A program made the translations under genes and the position numbers. From NCBI GenBank assembly GCA_964399345.1, contig CAYNQE010000001.1:17060-81059 (forward strand): a stretch of DNA of 64,000 nt. Reading direction: 5' to 3'. Positions 3,241 to 45,543 of the stretch are shown one piece after another. Position 1 is the stretch's first letter. Every line of letters begins with the position of its first letter. Source of the stretch: an uncultured Candidatus Saccharibacteria bacterium. Its GTDB lineage: Bacteria > Patescibacteriota > Minisyncoccia > Phycocordibacterales > UBA2100. Under the pieces are notes generated by a model. That model was not told where the DNA came from. It worked only from the letters and a program-made list of their open reading frames with translations, and made no database searches.

Positions 3241-4545
3241 ATGGAACGAACAATAATTTCAGACTTAACTAAAAAGAAAGGGGAGAAGGTACACATCGCA
3301 GGATGGGTAGATGTTCGTCGTGATCATGGGAAACTTACCTTCCTAGTTATCCGAGACCGTAGTGGAGTGGTTCAAGGTGTTGTCAAAGGAGATCTTACTG
3401 ACGAGACTAAAGACATACGAGAGCAATGGGTGGTAAGTATTCAAGGCACCGTAAACGAACGACCTGAGAGTATGATTAAGGACGAGCAAAACGGTGATGT
3501 TGAATTACTTGTCGAAGAAGTGCAAATTCTCTCAGAAGCTGATGAAATGCCTTTCGACTTAGATTCAGAATTAAATATAGATACATACTTAGACAACCTT
3601 CCACTAACACTACGTTCACAAAAAGCATTAGATGTATTCACAGTTCAAGCAACCATTACCGCGGCATTCCGTGAGTTCCTAACAAACGAGGGATTCAAAG
3701 AATACCAGTCACCTGCACTTGTAGGAGGAGACGCAGAAGGAGGAGCATCTGCCTTTAAAGTCGACTATTACAAAGATAAGTTAGCGTTTCTAGCAACTAG
3801 CCCTCAATTGTATAAGCAGATAATGGTAGGAACCTACGAGAGAGTGTTCAGTATTGGAAAAGTTTTTAGAGGAGAAGATCACGCAACTTCACGACACCTT
3901 TCAGAATATTCCTCCTTGGACTTTGAGATGGGCTTTATTGAAGATCACGAAGACGTTATGGAGATGACTCAAGCTGTTCACTCACATATCGCAAAGACTA
4001 TAGCTGAAAGACATCCCGACATACTTAAGAGAATGGAAGTTGAAATCCCATTAACTCCAGAAAAGTTTCCAGTAGTTACACTTAAGGAAGCACTGGAGAT
4101 TGTTGGAGCTGATGTTAACGAGCCAGATCTTGAACCTGAACACGAACGACAACTATGTGCTTGGGCTAAAGAGAATCATAAGTCTGACTATATCTTTGTT
4201 ACTCACTACCCTGTATCAAAGCGTCCTTTCTATACATACGAAGATGAAGATGCGCCAGGCACAACAAAAGGCTTTGATCTTCTTTTCCGAGGACTTGAGA
4301 TAACAACAGGAGGTCAAAGAATACACGACCATGATACTTTAGTTGAGAAGATAAAAGAGAAGGGAATGAACCCAGAACTATTCTCGTTCTATCTTCAAGC
4401 ATTTAAATTTGGAATGCCTCCTCACGGTGGTACAGGAAACGGACTAGAGCGTCTAACTCAACTTATGCTTGGACTAAAGAATGTGCGAGAAGCTACTTTA
4501 TTCCCACGTGACATGAACCGAATAGATAATCAGTTGAGTGAATAG
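3241..4545 (+). CDS. aspS: Aspartate--tRNA ligase, archaeal/type-2 form (class IIb)
   Basis: Class II motifs FRGEDHATSRHLSEY and GGQRIHD. C-terminal IKEKGMNPELFSFYLQAFKFGMPPHGGTGNGLERL closely matches archaeal-type AspRS. Length 434 aa. Confidence 0.75.
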   Translation: MERTIISDLTKKKGEKVHIAGWVDVRRDHGKLTFLVIRDRSGVVQGVVKGDLTDETKDIREQWVVSIQGTVNERPESMIKDEQNGDVELLVEEVQILSEADEMPFDLDSELNIDTYLDNLPLTLRSQKALDVFTVQATITAAFREFLTNEGFKEYQSPALVGGDAEGGASAFKVDYYKDKLAFLATSPQLYKQIMVGTYERVFSIGKVFRGEDHATSRHLSEYSSLDFEMGFIEDHEDVMEMTQAVHSHIAKTIAERHPDILKRMEVEIPLTPEKFPVVTLKEALEIVGADVNEPDLEPEHERQLCAWAKENHKSDYIFVTHYPVSKRPFYTYEDEDAPGTTKGFDLLFRGLEITTGGQRIHDHDTLVEKIKEKGMNPELFSFYLQAFKFGMPPHGGTGNGLERLTQLMLGLKNVREATLFPRDMNRIDNQLSE

Positions 4546-38826: not shown

Positions 38827-38898
38827 GGCTCGGTGGCGAAGTAGAAACGCTGGGGTTTGCAAAACCTCCATGCGCGGGTGCGATTCCCGCCCGAGCCT
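38827..38898 (+). tRNA. tRNA-Cys (anticodon GCA)
   Basis: Acceptor GGCTCGG/CCGAGCC. Anticodon stem GGGGT/ACCTC with loop TTGCAAA. T-arm GCGGG-TGCGATT-CCCGC. 72 nt. Confidence 0.7.
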
Positions 38899-38946
38899 CC
38901 TTAGATGGTAGAGGTATTGCAAAACTATTCCTTGTCGTCCTCTATT

Positions 38947-38955
38947 TGGTATAAT
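38947..38955 (+). promoter_or_regulatory. Extended -10 element TGgTATAAT. It ends 6 nt before the HNH ATG, so the transcript may be leaderless.
   Basis: TGnTATAAT match at 38947-38955. No Shine-Dalgarno between it and the ATG at 38962. Confidence 0.35.
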
Positions 38956-38961
38956 AAATAA

Positions 38962-39477
38962 ATGACTCGACGATCTTGGTCCGAGAAGGACCTAGAAACT
39001 GCAGTTAATGCCTCAACTAGCGTAAGGCAGGTGCTGAGAAAGCTTAACTTAAGAGAAGCGGGTGGTAATTATGTTCAAATCCGTAAATATCTAGATGAGT
39101 TGAATATAGACTCCTCGCACTTTAGAGGCAGGGGTTGGGCGCGAGGCCTTAAAGGTATTGGTTCCCCCAGGATTCCTCTAAAGGAAATATTGGTTAAAAA
39201 TAGTTCTTTCCAAAGTCACAAATTGAAAAATCGCTTATTTAAGGAAAACATAAAGTTCAGGGCTTGCGAAATGTGTAAGTGGGCTGAAATTTCCGAGGAT
39301 GGTCGTCAACCTTTGGAGCTTGACCATATCAACGGGGACAGGCATGATAATCGTCTACCTAACCTAAGAATTTTGTGCCCAAATTGTCATAGCTTGCAGT
39401 CAACGCATCGGGGTAGAAATATTGGTAGATGCCGAGGTGGTGGAGTTGGTAGACACGAGAGGCTTAAAACCTCTTGA
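38962..39477 (+). CDS. HNH homing endonuclease
   Basis: CEMCKW...LELDHINGDRHDNRLPNLRILCPNCHS is a canonical HNH-Zn motif. The last 47 nt and the stop codon lie inside tRNA-Leu(UAA). Confidence 0.8.
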   Translation: MTRRSWSEKDLETAVNASTSVRQVLRKLNLREAGGNYVQIRKYLDELNIDSSHFRGRGWARGLKGIGSPRIPLKEILVKNSSFQSHKLKNRLFKENIKFRACEMCKWAEISEDGRQPLELDHINGDRHDNRLPNLRILCPNCHSLQSTHRGRNIGRCRGGGVGRHERLKTS

Positions 39478-39516
39478 CCGTTTTTGGTCGCGCGGGTTCG
39501 AATCCCGCCCTCGGCA
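39431..39516 (+). tRNA. tRNA-Leu (anticodon TAA)
   Basis: Acceptor GCCGAGG/CCTCGGC. Anticodon stem AGAGG/CCTCT with loop CTTAAAA. Long variable arm. T-loop GGTTCGAATCC. Confidence 0.8.
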
Positions 39517-39763
39517 CCGAAACACAATTAAGCGGTCTTTGACCGACTTCTGGACTGTCCCCGATATACTGTACACACCCAGCTCCGCTTAGAGAGTTGG
39601 CGCAGAATTGCCACGTGCTCTCGCCGTGGGGAGTCCGCCACCGCAGTGGCGGACAATGGACAGCACGCGGAGCGTTCCGCTTTGTTAAAGTTAATCGCTC
39701 CGCGATTGTTTCTCAAAAAAAGTTCGAGCAAATGATATAATCTCCGCACCAAAATAAAACCTG

Positions 39764-39836
39764 TCCGCCCTCTAGGGCTCGAACCTAGGACAATCTCCTT
39801 AAGAGGGAGCTACTCTACCAACTGAGTTAAGGGCGG
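39764..39836 (-). tRNA. tRNA-Lys (anticodon CTT)
   Basis: 73-nt cloverleaf on the minus strand. D-arm ACTC-AGTTGGTA-GAGT. Anticodon loop CTCTTAA. T-arm CTAGG-TTCGAGC-CCTAG. Confidence 0.75.
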
Positions 39837-39935
39837 AAGTACCACATTCTAGTCTAAATTGATCGGTCTTTCAATACTATAAGAGTTTTCCAGTATTGGT
39901 AGTCACAAACTACCTTAGTATGCTAAACTACTAAT

Positions 39936-40571
39936 ATGGCTAAGGCACACAAGAAGATTAACATGGCCTGGTCTCCAAAATTATCTTACGCAATAGGAAT
40001 AATAGCCTCTGATGGTAATTTGTCCCCTGATAGAAGGCATATAAACATAACATCAAAAGATCTCTCTATTGTTGAAAGTTGTAAAAGCGCACTAGAGATA
40101 GATAACAAAATAGGAAGGAAGAGCCGCGAACGTTCTTCCGAAAAGGAATATTATGTCCTTCAATTTGGAAGTGTATTGTTTTATCAATTCTTGCTTGACC
40201 TGGGACTTCACCCAAACAAATCAAAAACACTGAAAAAAGTAGACGTTCCTAATGAATATTTCTCACATTTTTTACGAGGACTTATGAATGGTGATGGAAC
40301 AATAACATCCTTTAAGCATCCTTATAGCAAACTACTTCAAACAAGAATATCTTTGGCATCTGCAAGTCCGGATTTTCTAATCTGGATACACGGTAAAATA
40401 CGAAAACTTGTAAATATTGAAGGTGGTTGGATATACAATGCAAAAAAGAAAAATATCTCCATGCTTACATTTGGCAAAAGAGACACTATACTAGTCTGCA
40501 AATTTATGTATAATAAATCGGCTACATACAAGCTTATGCGTAAATATGATTGCATAGAAAAGTATCTTTAA
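39936..40571 (+). CDS. Double-motif (monomeric) LAGLIDADG homing endonuclease
   Basis: Two LAGLIDADG helices, YAIGIIASDGNL and HFLRGLMNGDGTI, about 100 aa apart. 211 aa. It fills the tRNA-Lys/tRNA-Leu spacer exactly. Confidence 0.8.
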   Translation: MAKAHKKINMAWSPKLSYAIGIIASDGNLSPDRRHINITSKDLSIVESCKSALEIDNKIGRKSRERSSEKEYYVLQFGSVLFYQFLLDLGLHPNKSKTLKKVDVPNEYFSHFLRGLMNGDGTITSFKHPYSKLLQTRISLASASPDFLIWIHGKIRKLVNIEGGWIYNAKKKNISMLTFGKRDTILVCKFMYNKSATYKLMRKYDCIEKYL

Positions 40572-40574
40572 GTT

Positions 40575-40659
40575 GGGCGAGTGGTGAAATTGGTATACAC
40601 GCGTGGTTTAGGACCACGTTCCGCAAGGAGTGGAGGTTCAAGTCCTCTCTCGCCCACCA
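40575..40659 (+). tRNA. tRNA-Leu (anticodon TAG), CCA encoded
   Basis: Acceptor GGGCGAG/CTCGCCC. Anticodon stem CGTGG/CCACG with loop TTTAGGA. Long variable arm. Ends ACCA. Confidence 0.8.
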
Positions 40660-40667
40660 GAATAGAA

Positions 40668-40812
40668 CTTGTCCGCCTACGCACTGGACGTGTCGCCTCG
40701 TTCCACTCAGCAACCTAAATACAAACTCATTCCCTTTCAACTTTTTACGACTCCCCCAGACCCCCACCGCAGGGAAAAGGAAAGGTGAGGAAATGGTTTG
40801 TTTTTTGGTTTA
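40668..40812 (+). repeat. Repeat A: about 145 bp left-flank copy of an inverted repeat pair bracketing the DGR. Begins 9 nt after tRNA-Leu(UAG).
   Basis: The reverse complement of 43553-43690 aligns base-for-base with this segment at about 80% identity, for example cgcctacgca[c/t]tggac...gttccactc...acccccaccgc[a/g]ggg...ggaaatg. Confidence 0.7.
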
Positions 40813-40827
40813 CTACTACGTAGTTAA

Positions 40828-41826
40828 CTACTTATTTAAATGTGTAGAAAGGGAGCGCGTGTACTCTTTTAACTCATAAGCATCTCCATGTCCGAGTAGT
40901 CCCAAGTATGATTGTAAAGTCCATTGTTTGCCATCAACTTCACTAATTCTCTTTAACATTCTTCGTTTTGTTACACTGCGTAGTACACGGTGAGTCGGAA
41001 AGTGAACCCAACCTAGAAAGTCAACTCCTGAGGAGAATGTTTCAATGGAAGTCTTTCGTTTATGCAATTTAAGTTGTAACTCTTCTTTTAGAAACGCACC
41101 TATGCACCGATGTATTTCCAACAACTCTTGTCTGTCTCGCGAAAGAATCACAAAATCGTCAGCATAACGAATATAATATTTAGCTTTCAGTTTGTGTTTA
41201 ACAAACTTATCAAGCTCATTCATATATACATTAACAAAGAGTTGCGAAGTGAGGTTACCAAGTGGTAATCCTTTTCTTTTCTCACCAGAGCTGAAACTCC
41301 CAACAATCTCTTCTAAAAGCGAAATTATATCTTTGTCAGAAATGTGTTTCTTCAAAATATTCATTAAGATAGAGTGGCCAATGGAGGCAAAGAATTTTCG
41401 TATATCGCTTTTAAATACCCAAACTGTTTTCGTGTTGTTCTTTGAAACTTTGTTTACAAAACTGCGAAGCCGATCAATTGCTCTGTGTGTCCCTTTGTTG
41501 TTTCTGCAAGAATATGAGTCAGCGATGAACGTATTGTCAAAATATGGATAGAGTTGTCTATATATTGCATGGTGAAATAGTCTGTCTCGCACGCTTGCCT
41601 TATGAATATTTCTTGGTTTGGGATCGGAAATGTTAAAAGCTTCGTATCTACCGTGCTTGTATGTTTTGTTTTTTAAATCTTGGTGTAATGAAAGTATGTT
41701 ATCCATTAGATGTAATTGGAACTCCTGCACGTCCTTACGTTTTCGTTTACCGTTTAAGAATTCCTTCCACGCACCGAGGAGATTTTCTACACAGATGATA
41801 TCATTGTAGGTATGAACAAATTTCAT
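40828..41826 (-). CDS. DGR-type reverse transcriptase
   Basis: RT motifs KHGRYEAFNISDPKPRNIHKASVRDRLFHHAI (domains 1-2) and YIRYADDFVIL (YADD catalytic box). 332 aa with no maturase or endonuclease domain. A TR/VR pair lies adjacent. Confidence 0.85.
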   Translation of the reverse strand: MKFVHTYNDIICVENLLGAWKEFLNGKRKRKDVQEFQLHLMDNILSLHQDLKNKTYKHGRYEAFNISDPKPRNIHKASVRDRLFHHAIYRQLYPYFDNTFIADSYSCRNNKGTHRAIDRLRSFVNKVSKNNTKTVWVFKSDIRKFFASIGHSILMNILKKHISDKDIISLLEEIVGSFSSGEKRKGLPLGNLTSQLFVNVYMNELDKFVKHKLKAKYYIRYADDFVILSRDRQELLEIHRCIGAFLKEELQLKLHKRKTSIETFSSGVDFLGWVHFPTHRVLRSVTKRRMLKRISEVDGKQWTLQSYLGLLGHGDAYELKEYTRSLSTHLNK

Positions 41827-41890
41827 CCTCAGAATCCTACCCCCCCCCTCAGCGATTTCGCAATCAAAGCTAATTCCCGTTATATTAAAA

Positions 41891-42223
41891 CTGAAAGATG
41901 TATATAGACTATGGCAGGAATATCTTGTTCATTTTCCGAAACAAAATCGCTATACCTTAGGGAGCAAAATTGATGAAGTATTCTTGATTGCTATAGAGTA
42001 CTGTTTTCTTGCCAGCTACGCCCCAAGGGATACTAAAATTATTCATCTCAACCGCTGTATTTCGCGAGTTGACTTGCTCAAACTTCTTTTGCAACTAGCG
42101 TGGGAAATACAAGCTTTAGATACTAAAAAATATACAGTACTTAGTGAGCAACTACAGGAAGTTGGAAGAATGCTTGGTGGGTGGAGAAAGGGGTTGGAAG
42201 TTAAAAACTCCCCACAAAAGTGA
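41891..42223 (+). CDS. avd: Avd-like accessory variability determinant (four-helix-bundle family). It is on the strand opposite the RT. The start is uncertain, with no in-frame ATG. A TTG at 41984 or CTG at 41891 could serve.
   Basis: In-frame translation ...KDVYRLWQEYLVHFPKQNRYTLGSKIDEVFLIAIEY...LLKLLLQLAWEIQALDTKKYTVLSEQLQEVGRMLGGWRKGL matches Avd/'23S rRNA intervening sequence protein' family features (WQ...FPK.E.Y.LGSQI and ...EV.KML.GL). Confidence 0.5.
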   Translation: MKDVYRLWQEYLVHFPKQNRYTLGSKIDEVFLIAIEYCFLASYAPRDTKIIHLNRCISRVDLLKLLLQLAWEIQALDTKKYTVLSEQLQEVGRMLGGWRKGLEVKNSPQK

Positions 42224-42235
42224 GGAGAAATATGT

Positions 42236-42351
42236 GCAGTAGCTAAAGACACGGTTGCCAGCATTCCAGACATTGCCGTCAAGCGGATTCGCATTGAAGT
42301 TCCACTTGGAATCGTCGGAGTTCCAGTTCGCGTTGACCACGAAGCCTTCAC
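42236..42351 (-). repeat. DGR template repeat (TR), 116 bp
   Basis: Collinear with VR 42686-42801 and no indels. 13 of 14 internal mismatches lie at TR positions that are A on the minus (coding-sense) strand. Confidence 0.8.
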
Positions 42352-42682: not shown

Positions 42683-43288
42683 TCAGCAGTTGCTAAAGAC
42701 ACGGCTGCCAGCAGGCCAGACAAAGCCGTCAAGCGGACTCGCACTGAAGTACCACTTGGAACCGTCGGAGTCCCAGATCGCGATGAACACGAAGCCTCCA
42801 CGGGGCTTGTTCACGTCAGGAACGAAGAAGAACAAGTTAGCAGCATAGTTTTCAACCAACAGGTCGCCTTCCGCTTCGCCACTTGGCTGTAGAGCAGTTA
42901 AACTGTCCATATGTGCCAGTAGAACCCTGATATCGCGATATATGGATTCAGGATATTCCTTCATAATATCCCACTCTCTCGTTTGAGTTTCCAGTTTGCG
43001 ATAGTGAGTCGCGATTTCAGGAACTGAAGCAATCGGTTTCGCCACCGGCAAAATTAGACTTGCCATATTCGGCGACGACCAACGTCCTTCTTTGCGAGTC
43101 TTGAAAGCGGTTTTTGGCACAAACTTTTTGGTTCGTGCCGGAATGACTGCCCCTTTCTTGAGTTCGCCCAGCTGAGAGACGGCCACAATTTTTGTCCGCC
43201 CAGCAAGCAATGCGTCAATACCCACCTCTCCACCGTGGATATTCCAGACTGCCTGTATTCGGTCGGGAGTTTTGTTAGCTTTTGACAT
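42683..43288 (-). CDS. DGR target (variable) protein, 201 aa, with a C-terminal CLec-like variable region and no signal peptide
   Basis: Carries the VR. C-terminal W..DGSKW.F.......DG.VW.AGSRV pattern. GC content is visibly higher than the flanking genes. Confidence 0.7.
   Translation of the reverse strand: MSKANKTPDRIQAVWNIHGGEVGIDALLAGRTKIVAVSQLGELKKGAVIPARTKKFVPKTAFKTRKEGRWSSPNMASLILPVAKPIASVPEIATHYRKLETQTREWDIMKEYPESIYRDIRVLLAHMDSLTALQPSGEAEGDLLVENYAANLFFFVPDVNKPRGGFVFIAIWDSDGSKWYFSASPLDGFVWPAGSRVFSNC
42686..42801 (-). repeat. DGR variable repeat (VR) at the 3' end of the target gene
   Basis: Same alignment as listed for the TR. The VR encodes the C-terminal ...FVFIAIWDSDGSKWYFSASPLDGFVWPAGSRVFSNC. 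The TR in the same frame reads Asn-rich ...VVNANWNSDDSKWNFNANPLDGNVWNAGNRVFSYC. Confidence 0.8.
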
Positions 43289-43552
43289 TGTCTTCTCCTT
43301 TATCCGTATAGGATATTAAGGTACACCTTTGCCCGTATAGAACAAAAGTACTAGACCGTGTGGTCTTAGCTACAAACAACCGAAATTTCGGTAACTTGTA
43401 GCTAGGACCAACAAATATTATGTAAATGAACTTCATGCATATTATACCACACTTCGTGGAGTATGCAAGACTAACTTCGCAAATCACGAAAAACAGAGAG
43501 CTCGTACGCTTTGCGTATAAGAGAACTGTTTTGTAGTGACGCAGCGAACCCG

Positions 43553-43690
43553 AAAAACAAACACATTTCCTTCTTTCTTCTTTCCCCGCGGTGGGGGTAT
43601 GGGGGAAGCCGTAAAAAATTGAAAGGAAATGTTTTGTTTTTTGGTCGCCGAGTGGAACAAGGCGGTAAGTCCAATGCGTAGGCGTATGTT
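43553..43690 (-). repeat. Repeat B: right-flank inverted copy of repeat A. It contains an internal 20-bp-arm palindrome (43559-43580 and 43625-43644).
   Basis: Same alignment as listed for repeat A. Arms cccgaaaaacaaacacatttcc and ggaaatgttttgttttttgg are near-perfect reverse complements. Confidence 0.7.
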
Positions 43691-43806: not shown

Positions 43807-44040
43807 TTAGATTCCAAACGTACTTTTTATAATACCTAGTATTCCAAAGACGGACGCCATAATGAAGATCCCTAATACTCCATATATCATATGCTGAACC
43901 CCTTCAGATCTTTTATCAGGACTATTCATGTTCAGCAAAAAGATCACGAGACCCCAGGTGAACATAAAAACTCCGGCTGCGAATATAACTAGTATTAAAG
44001 GATTAATTATTGAATCAACAATTTTATCCATTACCTCCAT
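43807..44040 (-). CDS. Small two-TM secreted protein, T4SS-pilin-like. Tandem paralog 1 of 5.
   Basis: Two hydrophobic helices. Shares a conserved C-terminal stretch with the other four tandem paralogs (compare 44043-44387 and 44481-44798). Confidence 0.4.
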   Translation of the reverse strand: MEVMDKIVDSIINPLILVIFAAGVFMFTWGLVIFLLNMNSPDKRSEGVQHMIYGVLGIFIMASVFGILGIIKSTFGI

Positions 44041-44042
44041 GC

Positions 44043-44387
44043 CTATCTCCTAATTTCCTTAGGAACAATTGGGGCTGAGCCCGTTACCTCAAATGTCTCT
44101 TGTAGTATTCGAATAATTCCCCAGATACTTACCATAACGAATATCGCTATAATTCCCATAAACATTTGGTTTATGGCCTTTCCTTTTGCCTCTGAATCGT
44201 CAGACTTTAATATATAGCTAGCCAATCCCCAAAAGAAATATAAAACGGCAAGAGCCAAAATTATTGGGATGATTCCGTTTATAATACCGCTAATTGTGTT
44301 TAATGTATTTCCAAGAGTAACGGCGGATGCTGTTGTAGGCATCATTACTGCAACTCCGGTTAATATAAGTGCGTTTATTTTTTGCAT
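44043..44387 (-). CDS. Small two-TM secreted protein, T4SS-pilin-like. Tandem paralog 2 of 5.
   Basis: Signal peptide then two TM helices. Conserved ...VMVSIWGIIRILQ tail shared with paralog 3. Confidence 0.45.
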   Translation of the reverse strand: MQKINALILTGVAVMMPTTASAVTLGNTLNTISGIINGIIPIILALAVLYFFWGLASYILKSDDSEAKGKAINQMFMGIIAIFVMVSIWGIIRILQETFEVTGSAPIVPKEIRR

Positions 44388-44480
44388 TGTATGTTAATAA
44401 AACTAATAAAATACGTTTGAATGTACTTACCTATATGGTAGCACCGTTACTAGTAGATTTAATATATTTTGGGGATATCG

Positions 44481-44798
44481 TTAAAGACCACCAAAAAGAG
44501 TCGACTGAAGTATTCGGATGATTCCCCATATACTTACCATAACGAAAAGAATAATAACCCCCCAAACCATAGAATCCTTGAGCTCTTTTTTCTTCTCCGC
44601 AGAGTCTGCATCGTAATTAAATAGTCCTGAGGCTACTCTCCAGAAGAAGAACGCAAGAGCAAGGCTAAATAATGCAGTGGTTGCTAGATTAAGCATGTCC
44701 ACTGCCCAATACGAAAGTTCCTTAAATGTTTTTGCAGCAGCAAATGAGACCTCAAAACTTAAAAGGAAAGTTGCTACGATAAAAAAAAGATTTTTCAT
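44481..44798 (-). CDS. Small two-TM secreted protein, T4SS-pilin-like. Tandem paralog 3 of 5.
   Basis: Signal peptide then two TM helices. ...VMVSIWGIIRILQ tail. Confidence 0.45.
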   Translation of the reverse strand: MKNLFFIVATFLLSFEVSFAAAKTFKELSYWAVDMLNLATTALFSLALAFFFWRVASGLFNYDADSAEKKKELKDSMVWGVIILFVMVSIWGIIRILQSTLFGGL

Positions 44799-44799
44799 A

Positions 44800-45159
44800 T
44801 TAAACAGCTAGAATTGGATCAATCGTTCCCTTAATTAAAGTAGCTAAGGCAAACGCGCCAAGAAGTAATGCCACTCCTATAACTACCCATAAGAAGTTAC
44901 TTTTTGCCTCCCCAAGTTTATCTGAGTTTCCTCGTGCCATTACAAACAAAAATCCTGAATATACTATGAACAATACTGCTACTGGAAATAGTATTTGTGT
45001 AACCACATTCAAAAATGCTTCTGTGAAGCCAGCTACGGTATCTAGGCCGTTGCATAATGGGTTTTGAAACCCTTTTCCCCCTCCTCTGGAACAAGCGGCA
45101 GAAACAACTCCTGGAACGGACAAAAGAAACATAGATGTAGAGAACAATATTTTTTTCAT
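44800..45159 (-). CDS. Small two-TM secreted protein, T4SS-pilin-like. Tandem paralog 4 of 5.
   Basis: Signal peptide, Cys-containing segment, two TM helices. Confidence 0.4.
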   Translation of the reverse strand: MKKILFSTSMFLLSVPGVVSAACSRGGGKGFQNPLCNGLDTVAGFTEAFLNVVTQILFPVAVLFIVYSGFLFVMARGNSDKLGEAKSNFLWVVIGVALLLGAFALATLIKGTIDPILAV

Positions 45160-45171
45160 ATAAATATAATA

Positions 45172-45543
45172 TCACTTTTTATACAAAGCGTATAAAAGGA
45201 ATGCGGATATAACTACTAAAAGTGCTGACGAGGTTAATCCACTGAGCGTGTTGCCAACAAGTTGTGCTATCGCCCAAAGAGCTAAGAATACGGTTCCTCC
45301 TATTAACGTGGTGAGTGCCATTGATTTTGCTTTCGTAAGACCTGCGGGATTGCCTTGTGCTGAGACAAACAAAAACCCTGTCCACACTATTAACACTATT
45401 AATGCAGGAGTACCCACATAGATAACTCCATTAACGAAAGCTTCTAAGATTTCTCTTACAAATCTAAGGAGTAAAGGGTTTTCAAAAGTAGCAGCACTTA
45501 CTATCCCCGGTAGAAAAAGAACGGCTAAATATATTAATCTCAT
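45172..45543 (-). CDS. Small two-TM secreted protein, T4SS-pilin-like. Tandem paralog 5 of 5.
   Basis: Signal peptide and two TM helices, similar to paralog 4. Confidence 0.4.
   Translation of the reverse strand: MRLIYLAVLFLPGIVSAATFENPLLLRFVREILEAFVNGVIYVGTPALIVLIVWTGFLFVSAQGNPAGLTKAKSMALTTLIGGTVFLALWAIAQLVGNTLSGLTSSALLVVISAFLLYALYKK

Follow-up and report, generated by a model that had tools for sequence, protein, structure and literature searches.

The window analysed here, a stretch of 64,000 nucleotides, harbours a diversity-generating retroelement (DGR) cassette of which the reverse transcriptase (RT), the template repeat (TR), the variable repeat (VR) and the target gene all lie on the minus strand, with an avd gene on the opposite strand; the coordinates agree in this respect with the preliminary description of the locus. 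The RT gene (40828..41826, minus strand) codes for a protein of 332 aa matching PF00078 (E 9.8e-26), with a YADD motif at residue 221, and the identical protein is encoded on two other assemblies. The TR, of 116 nt, occupies positions 42236..42351 (minus strand), and the corresponding VR (42686..42801, minus strand) is located at the 3' end of the target gene (42683..43288, minus strand), whose 201-aa product has no Pfam match. TR and VR differ at 15 of their 116 positions, 13 of these 15 being adenines in the TR, and all 13 A-to-N differences in the target VR fall on codon positions 1 or 2. The Avd reading frame is found on the plus strand at 41816..42223: it opens after a TGA at 41813-15, which forms its upstream boundary in translation, and extends over 135 codons to the TGA at 42221-23.

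An unusual DGR architecture had been one of two explanations offered in the preliminary description for an avd gene reversed with respect to its RT, and the comparison with known DGRs does not uphold it. A reversed avd between TR and RT, written TR-(avd)-RT, is the published architecture B3, which, according to the passages on DGR architecture in Wu et al. (2018, NAR 46:11, PMC5758913), represents about 90% of the DGRs of candidate-phyla-radiation (CPR) bacteria. In the window, target/VR, TR, reversed avd and RT follow one another and are oriented exactly as in B3. Moreover, 149 of the 163 related loci that were fetched share the reversed avd, with the RT directly upstream on the opposite strand and the 5' ends of the two genes abutting or overlapping. 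Judged by this gene order, the orientation of avd in the window is the normal one for CPR DGRs. With regard to the beginning of the gene, a term search of the text of PMC5758913 returned no mention of start codons, and the sole passage containing 'frameshift' that it returned deals with TR/VR indels.

The plus-strand frame 41816-42223 encodes a genuine Avd of the DGR. In the Pfam search it matched PF22296 (bAvd-like) with an E-value of 6.5e-14 and 52.8 bits, above the cutoff of 40 bits, and it matched the NCBIfam model NF033474 ('DGR protein Avd') with 69.8 bits, under the equivalog cutoff of 80 bits, so that a curated threshold is passed for Pfam only; in the NCBIfam alignment, Avd residues 21-125 face profile positions 2-104. 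The assignment to the Avd family that had been made from the letters of the sequence holds, whereas the Pfam entry then named for it does not: PF05635 yields only a weak match (E 0.049), and PF22296 is the correct family. The two peptides given earlier as the family match, WQEYLVHFPKQNRYTLGSKI and LSEQLQEVGRMLGGWRKGL, are both encoded by this frame. It is the sole Avd-like frame, since no second one was found anywhere in the 64-kb window, and no canonical avd occurs elsewhere among the frames of the window. The closest homologues all come from Patescibacteria/CPR MAGs and metagenomes, with at most 93% identity.

As a sequence-profile search of the PDB with the Avd frame gave no Avd match, a fold search was needed. 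The AlphaFold2 model, built on 38 homologues (pLDDT 87.7), predicts a four-helix bundle, with helices at residues 20-37 (H1, 41873-41926), 42-68 (H2, 41939-42019), 71-97 (H3, 42026-42106) and 103-130 (H4, 42122-42205), all on the plus strand, preceded by a disordered N-terminus (residues 1-19). The best PDB matches obtained with Foldseek were 2gsc, 4dwl and 8ub7, the last being a DGR ribonucleoprotein, and the comparison with 4dwl, the Avd of the Bordetella phage, gave a TM-score of 0.75/0.91 and an rmsd of 1.5 Å. The window Avd resembles that of Bordetella phage BPP-1 (4DWL, 8UB7; PF22296) in its Pfam family, in its four-helix-bundle fold and in the adjacency of its gene to a DGR RT and TR. 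However, the two proteins are only 15-17% identical in sequence, the window gene lies on the opposite strand, between TR and RT, and its product carries a Pro-rich, tract-encoded N-terminal extension that has no in-frame start as sequenced.

This missing start had been pointed out in the preliminary description, and the translation confirms it: ATG, GTG and TTG are all absent from the Avd frame between the stop at 41813 and a TTG at 41984. The latter is codon 57 and lies in the middle of helix 2, and initiation there would, as had been anticipated, delete helix 1, together with half of helix 2 in the model. A full-length Avd requires either a frameshift or a non-canonical start, in line with the earlier statement. 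An ATG that was not noted at that stage is present on the plus strand at 41812..41814, where it is the reverse complement of the RT codon His5 (CAT). This probable avd initiation codon is one base out of frame with Avd and, as sequenced, opens an ORF of only 31 codons, MNKFHPQNPTPPLSDFAIKANSRYIKTERCI, which starts with MNKFHPQNPTPPLSDF... and ends at 41907.

The reason for the missing start is found between this ATG and the Avd helices, where a C9 homopolymer (41840..41848; G9 on the RT strand), encoding PPP in the Avd frame, puts this frame one base off ATG 41812. It is the sole C or G run of eight or more in the window, the GC content of which is 40%. As the tract lies within the 5' coding region, a change in its length shifts the Avd frame, and a C8 or C11 tract would fuse ATG 41812 to it, giving a product of 136-137 aa that begins with MNKFHPQNPTPP(P)SAISQSKL..., otherwise written MNKFHPQNPTPP(P)SAISQSKLIPVILKLKD... 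This fused N-terminus is similar to those of three homologues called full-length (P0032, P0035 and P0020). In general, annotated full-length homologues begin with M...TPPP or M...LPPP, as exemplified by the N-termini MNTNFSHTPNSTPPPTIIQPKL and MNETHSHSSEATPPPTISQPKL of database entries. No good Shine-Dalgarno sequence precedes ATG 41812. An alternative genetic code, in which TGA would be read as Gly, was considered and rejected: TAG 41807 still closes the frame, and there is no start from 41807 to the tract.

With regard to the possibility of a decaying avd, raised in the preliminary description, the pattern of substitutions speaks against it. Over the 45 codons that extend from the tract to TTG 41984, comparison with 16 relatives gave pS values of 0.63-0.95, which are saturated, and pN values of 0.09-0.18, a pattern identical to that of the C-terminal part of the gene and indicative of strong purifying selection. 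The frame contains no internal stops, and the RT, TR/VR and target gene are intact. On this evidence from codon usage and gene integrity, the avd of the window is not decaying. The selection is visible down to the four residues that follow the tract: in 30 non-redundant loci, Q-P-K-L is kept as amino acids while all synonymous codons are used, namely, four for Pro, both for Lys and six for Leu, and 20 of these 30 loci are without an in-frame ATG. As Q-P-K-L is maintained at the amino-acid level, translation includes these codons and has to enter from, or through, the tract. A downstream TTG or GTG was also examined as a general start and discarded, as TTG occurs at the Leu position in only 8 of the 30 loci and downstream TTG/GTG codons are not enriched in out-of-frame loci (60% vs 65%, p = 0.57).

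A run of 7 to 14 C is present at the homologous position in 144 related loci, C9 being the commonest length, followed by C10. The comparison of start-codon usage with related avd genes, suggested at the outset, showed that the situation of the window is a frequent one: among 118 non-redundant loci, 41 have an in-frame ATG upstream of the tract, 5 an in-frame GTG or TTG, and 72 no canonical in-frame upstream start. In 27 of these 72 start-less loci, a stop lies at most 12 nt upstream of the tract, and in 29, as in the window, no canonical start is found within 45 nt downstream. Measured against the upstream ATG, 41 loci are in frame, while 42 would be brought into frame by the loss of one C, 24 by the gain of one and 8 by either change. 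From the tract onward, every locus has an open Avd frame. Across the sequences compared, the start-less avd is a family-wide feature tied to the conserved poly-C tract.

The relation between frame and tract length is not the same for short and long tracts. Of 25 loci with a short tract (C7-8) or none, 16 have the ATG in frame, whereas of 99 loci with C9 or longer 29 do and 70 do not, the in-frame share being about the one-third expected at random; the difference is significant by Fisher's test (p = 0.002), although this value overstates the independence of loci that are phylogenetically related. The in-frame loci with a short tract or none include L037, L077, L138/144 (tract-less) and L157 (C6), and exceptions, with a short tract and yet out of frame, are L067 (C5AC4) and L162 (C6). 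In two lineages another repeat takes the place of poly-C: L150 has (CT)11 (positions ~2460-2482) and is exactly one unit out of frame, and L077 has (AC)5 (~3486-3500). L046 carries two adjacent C7 runs with a T between them.

Differences in tract length are also observed between nearly identical sequences. L028 (C9) and L030 (C10) have 1400-nt flanks that are 100% identical, as do L147 (C14) and L151 (C12). L157, which has C6 and is in frame, aligns with the out-of-frame L154 group (C7) at 97.7% identity over 1.8 kb; this alignment contains a single gap, which fits the C6/C7 difference. Tract length differs as well in the pairs L108/L109 and L119/L120. It is uniform in 12 of 16 clusters, and also in the strain of the window, as seen in MAG consensus sequences, which hide heterogeneity of tract length within populations. 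For the window strain, C9 is found in all three assemblies, the two others (JGI and Logan) being 100% identical to the window over 3.9-4.5 kb, with an identical VR. Out-of-frame lengths are likewise stable across samples, L083-86 all having C10 and the six contigs of the L154 group all having C7.

Within such clusters, the differences between samples are concentrated in the VR. In the L154 group (C7), L154, L160 and L161 differ from L156 at 18-24 positions, 18-23 of them in the VR; L158 differs at 74 positions, with 34 in the VR, and L159 at a single position outside it. Between L028 (C9) and L030 (C10), 23 of 24 differences are in the VR. As these differences are mostly located in the VR, an out-of-frame consensus is compatible with a working DGR. 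The clusters that combine VR turnover with an out-of-frame tract, unlike the start-less window, also have a TTG soon after the tract, and their turnover is for this reason no proof of activity in strictly start-less loci such as the window.

From these features we can propose how the expression of avd might be controlled. Translation of avd would start at ATG 41812, which falls within the opening codons of the divergently oriented RT gene, and the poly-C tract, presumed to be hypermutable and situated between this ATG and the Avd helices, would encode a disordered Pro-rich linker. Slipped-strand mispairing would alter the length of the tract and thereby bring ATG 41812 in or out of the Avd frame, that is, cause phase variation; since the tract-encoded segment belongs to the disordered N-terminus, it should tolerate changes in length. 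The C9 of the window would correspond to a switch that is one C too long and OFF by one, from which C8 or C11 would restore an Avd of the length given above, and the in-frame product would carry a tract-spanning junction peptide, ...NPTPPSAISQSK. Avd proteins are characterised as pentamers with affinity for both the RT and the DGR RNA, and in the DGR of the Bordetella phage cDNA synthesis depends on Avd. If Avd is needed in the same way here, the tract would gate the hypermutation of the VR. Some leaky synthesis of Avd could also occur through slippage of RNA polymerase or of the ribosome on the C run.

We tentatively favour the reading according to which the window encodes a functional Avd of the CPR type (B3), with tract-dependent expression from ATG 41812 and phase variation at the DNA level as the primary mechanism, while giving it slightly less than even weight. 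Its three components, the start at ATG 41812, slippage within populations and switching of the DGR, are what we infer from the comparison of sequences. A broader proposal, held with somewhat more reserve, is that the tract, or the CT or AC repeat in its place, could be a selected contingency switch of Avd and of VR hypermutation across the CPR/Patescibacteria DGRs sampled. The identity of Avd and the B3 architecture are already known. A link between a DGR avd and a homopolymer or phase variation was not found in the searchable literature, outside which lies Paul et al. 2017, and the conserved but length-variable tract at the 5' end of avd, with its near-random frame, appears to be undescribed in that literature.

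The proposed switch has its closest parallel in the poly-G/C contingency loci of Campylobacter, Neisseria, Helicobacter and Bordetella (PMC8355987, PMC5084427, PMC1891110), with which it shares a run of 7-14 G or C in the 5' coding region, an AT-rich genome, a length that varies, among relatives, between near-identical sequences, the existence of ON and OFF frames, and the replacement of the run by other repeats in certain lineages. It differs from them in that the gated gene would code for the cofactor of a targeted mutator instead of a surface or restriction-modification function, in that the tract is kept over a very deep divergence (Avd identity down to ~43%) and at the same time forms part of the 5' leader of the RT gene, which is divergent, and in that its switching is a proposal. 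A second parallel is provided by hifA/hifB of H. influenzae, where TA repeats in the shared 5' region alter promoter spacing. In both cases a simple repeat separates two divergently transcribed genes of one system; at the DGR locus, however, the repeat is inside the avd reading frame and the RT leader.

Among the other explanations, recoding at the level of expression deserves the most attention, although we consider it rather unlikely. ATG 41812 would then give a constitutive low output of Avd, irrespective of the frame of the DNA, either because RNA polymerase slips on C9/G9 or because the ribosome shifts +1 on CCC-CCC-C, with the tRNA-Pro re-pairing in any frame, and tract length would be nearly neutral. 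The near-uniform distribution of frames among long tracts (29 in, 70 out) is what this would produce, and the Avd frame, always open and under selection from the tract onward, agrees with it. So does the stability of out-of-frame lengths across samples of one species whose VRs differ: a stable state with slippage during expression accounts for these lengths at least as well as fast switching of the DNA. Nevertheless, a correction in both directions would be needed (minus one C in 42 loci, plus one in 24), which is atypical for programmed ribosomal frameshifting, and the (CT)11 and (AC)5 repeats at the tract site are ill suited to single-base slippage of a polymerase or ribosome. Of the features of programmed frameshifting or slippage, the slippery run is present, but the direction is variable, no stimulatory element was found, and there is no nearby stop in the 0 frame, the next one being 19 codons downstream. 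The composition of the run also speaks against it, elongation transcriptional slippage being documented mainly for runs of A or T, and not of C or G.

Initiation at a non-canonical codon of the Avd frame itself, with ATT 41855, ATT 41873, ATA 41882 and CTG 41891 as candidates, would make both ATG 41812 and the tract irrelevant. Near-cognate codons can initiate weakly, the NF033474 profile begins at residue 21, adjoining ATT 41873, and the Ile of 'KLIPV' is encoded by ATT, ATA or ATC in 26 of 30 close loci. We nonetheless regard this explanation as improbable: Q-P-K-L, upstream of the Ile, is selected as amino acids, which implies that translation begins earlier, and from the tract to the Q no near-cognate codon is conserved. 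The short-tract and tract-less loci with an in-frame ATG and the lack of a Shine-Dalgarno-like motif upstream also speak against it.

Just as improbable, in our opinion, is a recent inactivation, in which the avd of this strain has been silenced by the gain of one base in the tract, leaving a DGR that is currently dead, a situation that overlaps the OFF state of the proposed switch. Standard decoding of the window indeed yields no full-length Avd, and the three assemblies of the strain agree in both C9 and VR. However, no other lesion was found in avd, RT, TR, VR or the hairpin described below, and the tract is out of frame in ~60% of related species whose genes are intact, which is not compatible with a separate recent death in each of them. 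Finally, a sequencing or assembly error hiding a C8 tract in an ordinary gene is very improbable, for although homopolymers are error-prone and the identical-flank pairs that differ in the tract alone could be explained in this way, C9 is reproduced in the JGI and the independent Logan assemblies, and the out-of-frame state is found in about two thirds of the 118 loci, which come from many studies, a share far beyond any plausible rate of consensus error.

The tract must also be considered from the side of the RT gene, where it reads as a run of G. In the commonest arrangement, to which the window belongs, 13 nt separate the end of the G-run from the RT ATG. A role as Shine-Dalgarno sequence of the RT was rejected owing to this distance and to the presence, in many such loci, of a separate GGAG-like motif in between; in the window, GAGG directly precedes the RT ATG. 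The G-run is not simply a ribosome-binding site of the RT, then, and may act in the RT leader or in the DGR RNA. Conservation of the tract could accordingly serve RT expression or the DGR RNA instead of the switching of avd, or, under the broader contingency-switch proposal, RT expression might be linked to the switch through the G-run in its leader. The idea that the G-run pairs over a long range with the C-rich antisense of 'GGWRKG' was dropped as weak.

Little is understood of how DGR mutagenesis is regulated, and large numbers of DGRs have been reported from CPR bacteria. If the synthesis of Avd depends on the length of a hypermutable tract, the activity of the DGR would be bistable within populations, a mutable switch thus controlling a mutator, and such bistability could explain how a costly mutator is mostly silent and yet available. 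There is also a practical consequence: out-of-frame tracts lead gene callers to truncate or miss avd, which was the case in ~60% of related loci, and surveys that demand an annotated Avd will for this reason under-count or misclassify CPR DGRs.

Several other features of the locus were recorded. The 5' ends of avd (ATG 41812) and RT (ATG 41826) overlap by 15 nt on opposite strands (41812-41826), with the result that the promoter of each gene must lie inside the other; a scan for promoter consensus sequences at avd/RT gave matches at chance level and was uninformative. Directly 3' of the TR on the minus strand, and straddling the avd stop, lies a hairpin (42208..42227), CUCCUCAC-UUUU-GUGGGGAG, followed by a U-run. 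It comprises 8-10 bp, 5'-UUUCUCC...GGAGUUUU-3', and is found at the same position in nearly all related loci (L001-L162), with compensatory changes in the inner stem. This hairpin may be an intrinsic terminator of the TR transcript or an Avd-binding stem-loop, of the kind described downstream of TRs by Handa et al. (bioRxiv 10.1101/2023.10.23.563531). Should it act as a terminator, the RT would have to be transcribed from a separate promoter located within the antisense of avd. In the event of read-through from the TR, ~400 nt of the TR-RT transcript would be complementary to the avd mRNA.

The whole cassette is bracketed by an inverted repeat of 141 nt (82% identity), one arm of which (40674-40811) lies just past the RT stop, adjoining a tRNA-Leu gene (40575-40659), and the other (43547-43684) ~260 nt upstream of the target start. 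It is absent from all 160 related loci searched and could be the trace of cassette mobility or of a local duplication. The DGR is situated immediately downstream of the tRNA-Leu(UAG) gene, the last of a dense tRNA cluster (38827-40659) comprising Cys, Leu-UAA, Lys and Leu-UAG. Among these tRNAs are an HNH-type endonuclease-like ORF (38962-39477) and a LAGLIDADG-type ORF (39936-40571), the latter with a faint PF14528 match in the annotation of L163. ARAGORN additionally predicted a permuted 'tmRNA*' at 40567-41163, overlapping the tRNA-Leu and the 3' part of the RT gene; it is probably a false positive, Rfam indicating no tmRNA there. On the other side of the cassette, directly upstream of the target gene, five ORFs for small membrane proteins (77-123 aa) follow one another on the minus strand (43807-45543), and for several of them the annotation of the identical contig L163 gives T4SS-pilin or TrbC-like Pfam matches (PF18895, PF04956). 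The target protein diversified by the DGR may be part of a pilus or surface apparatus.
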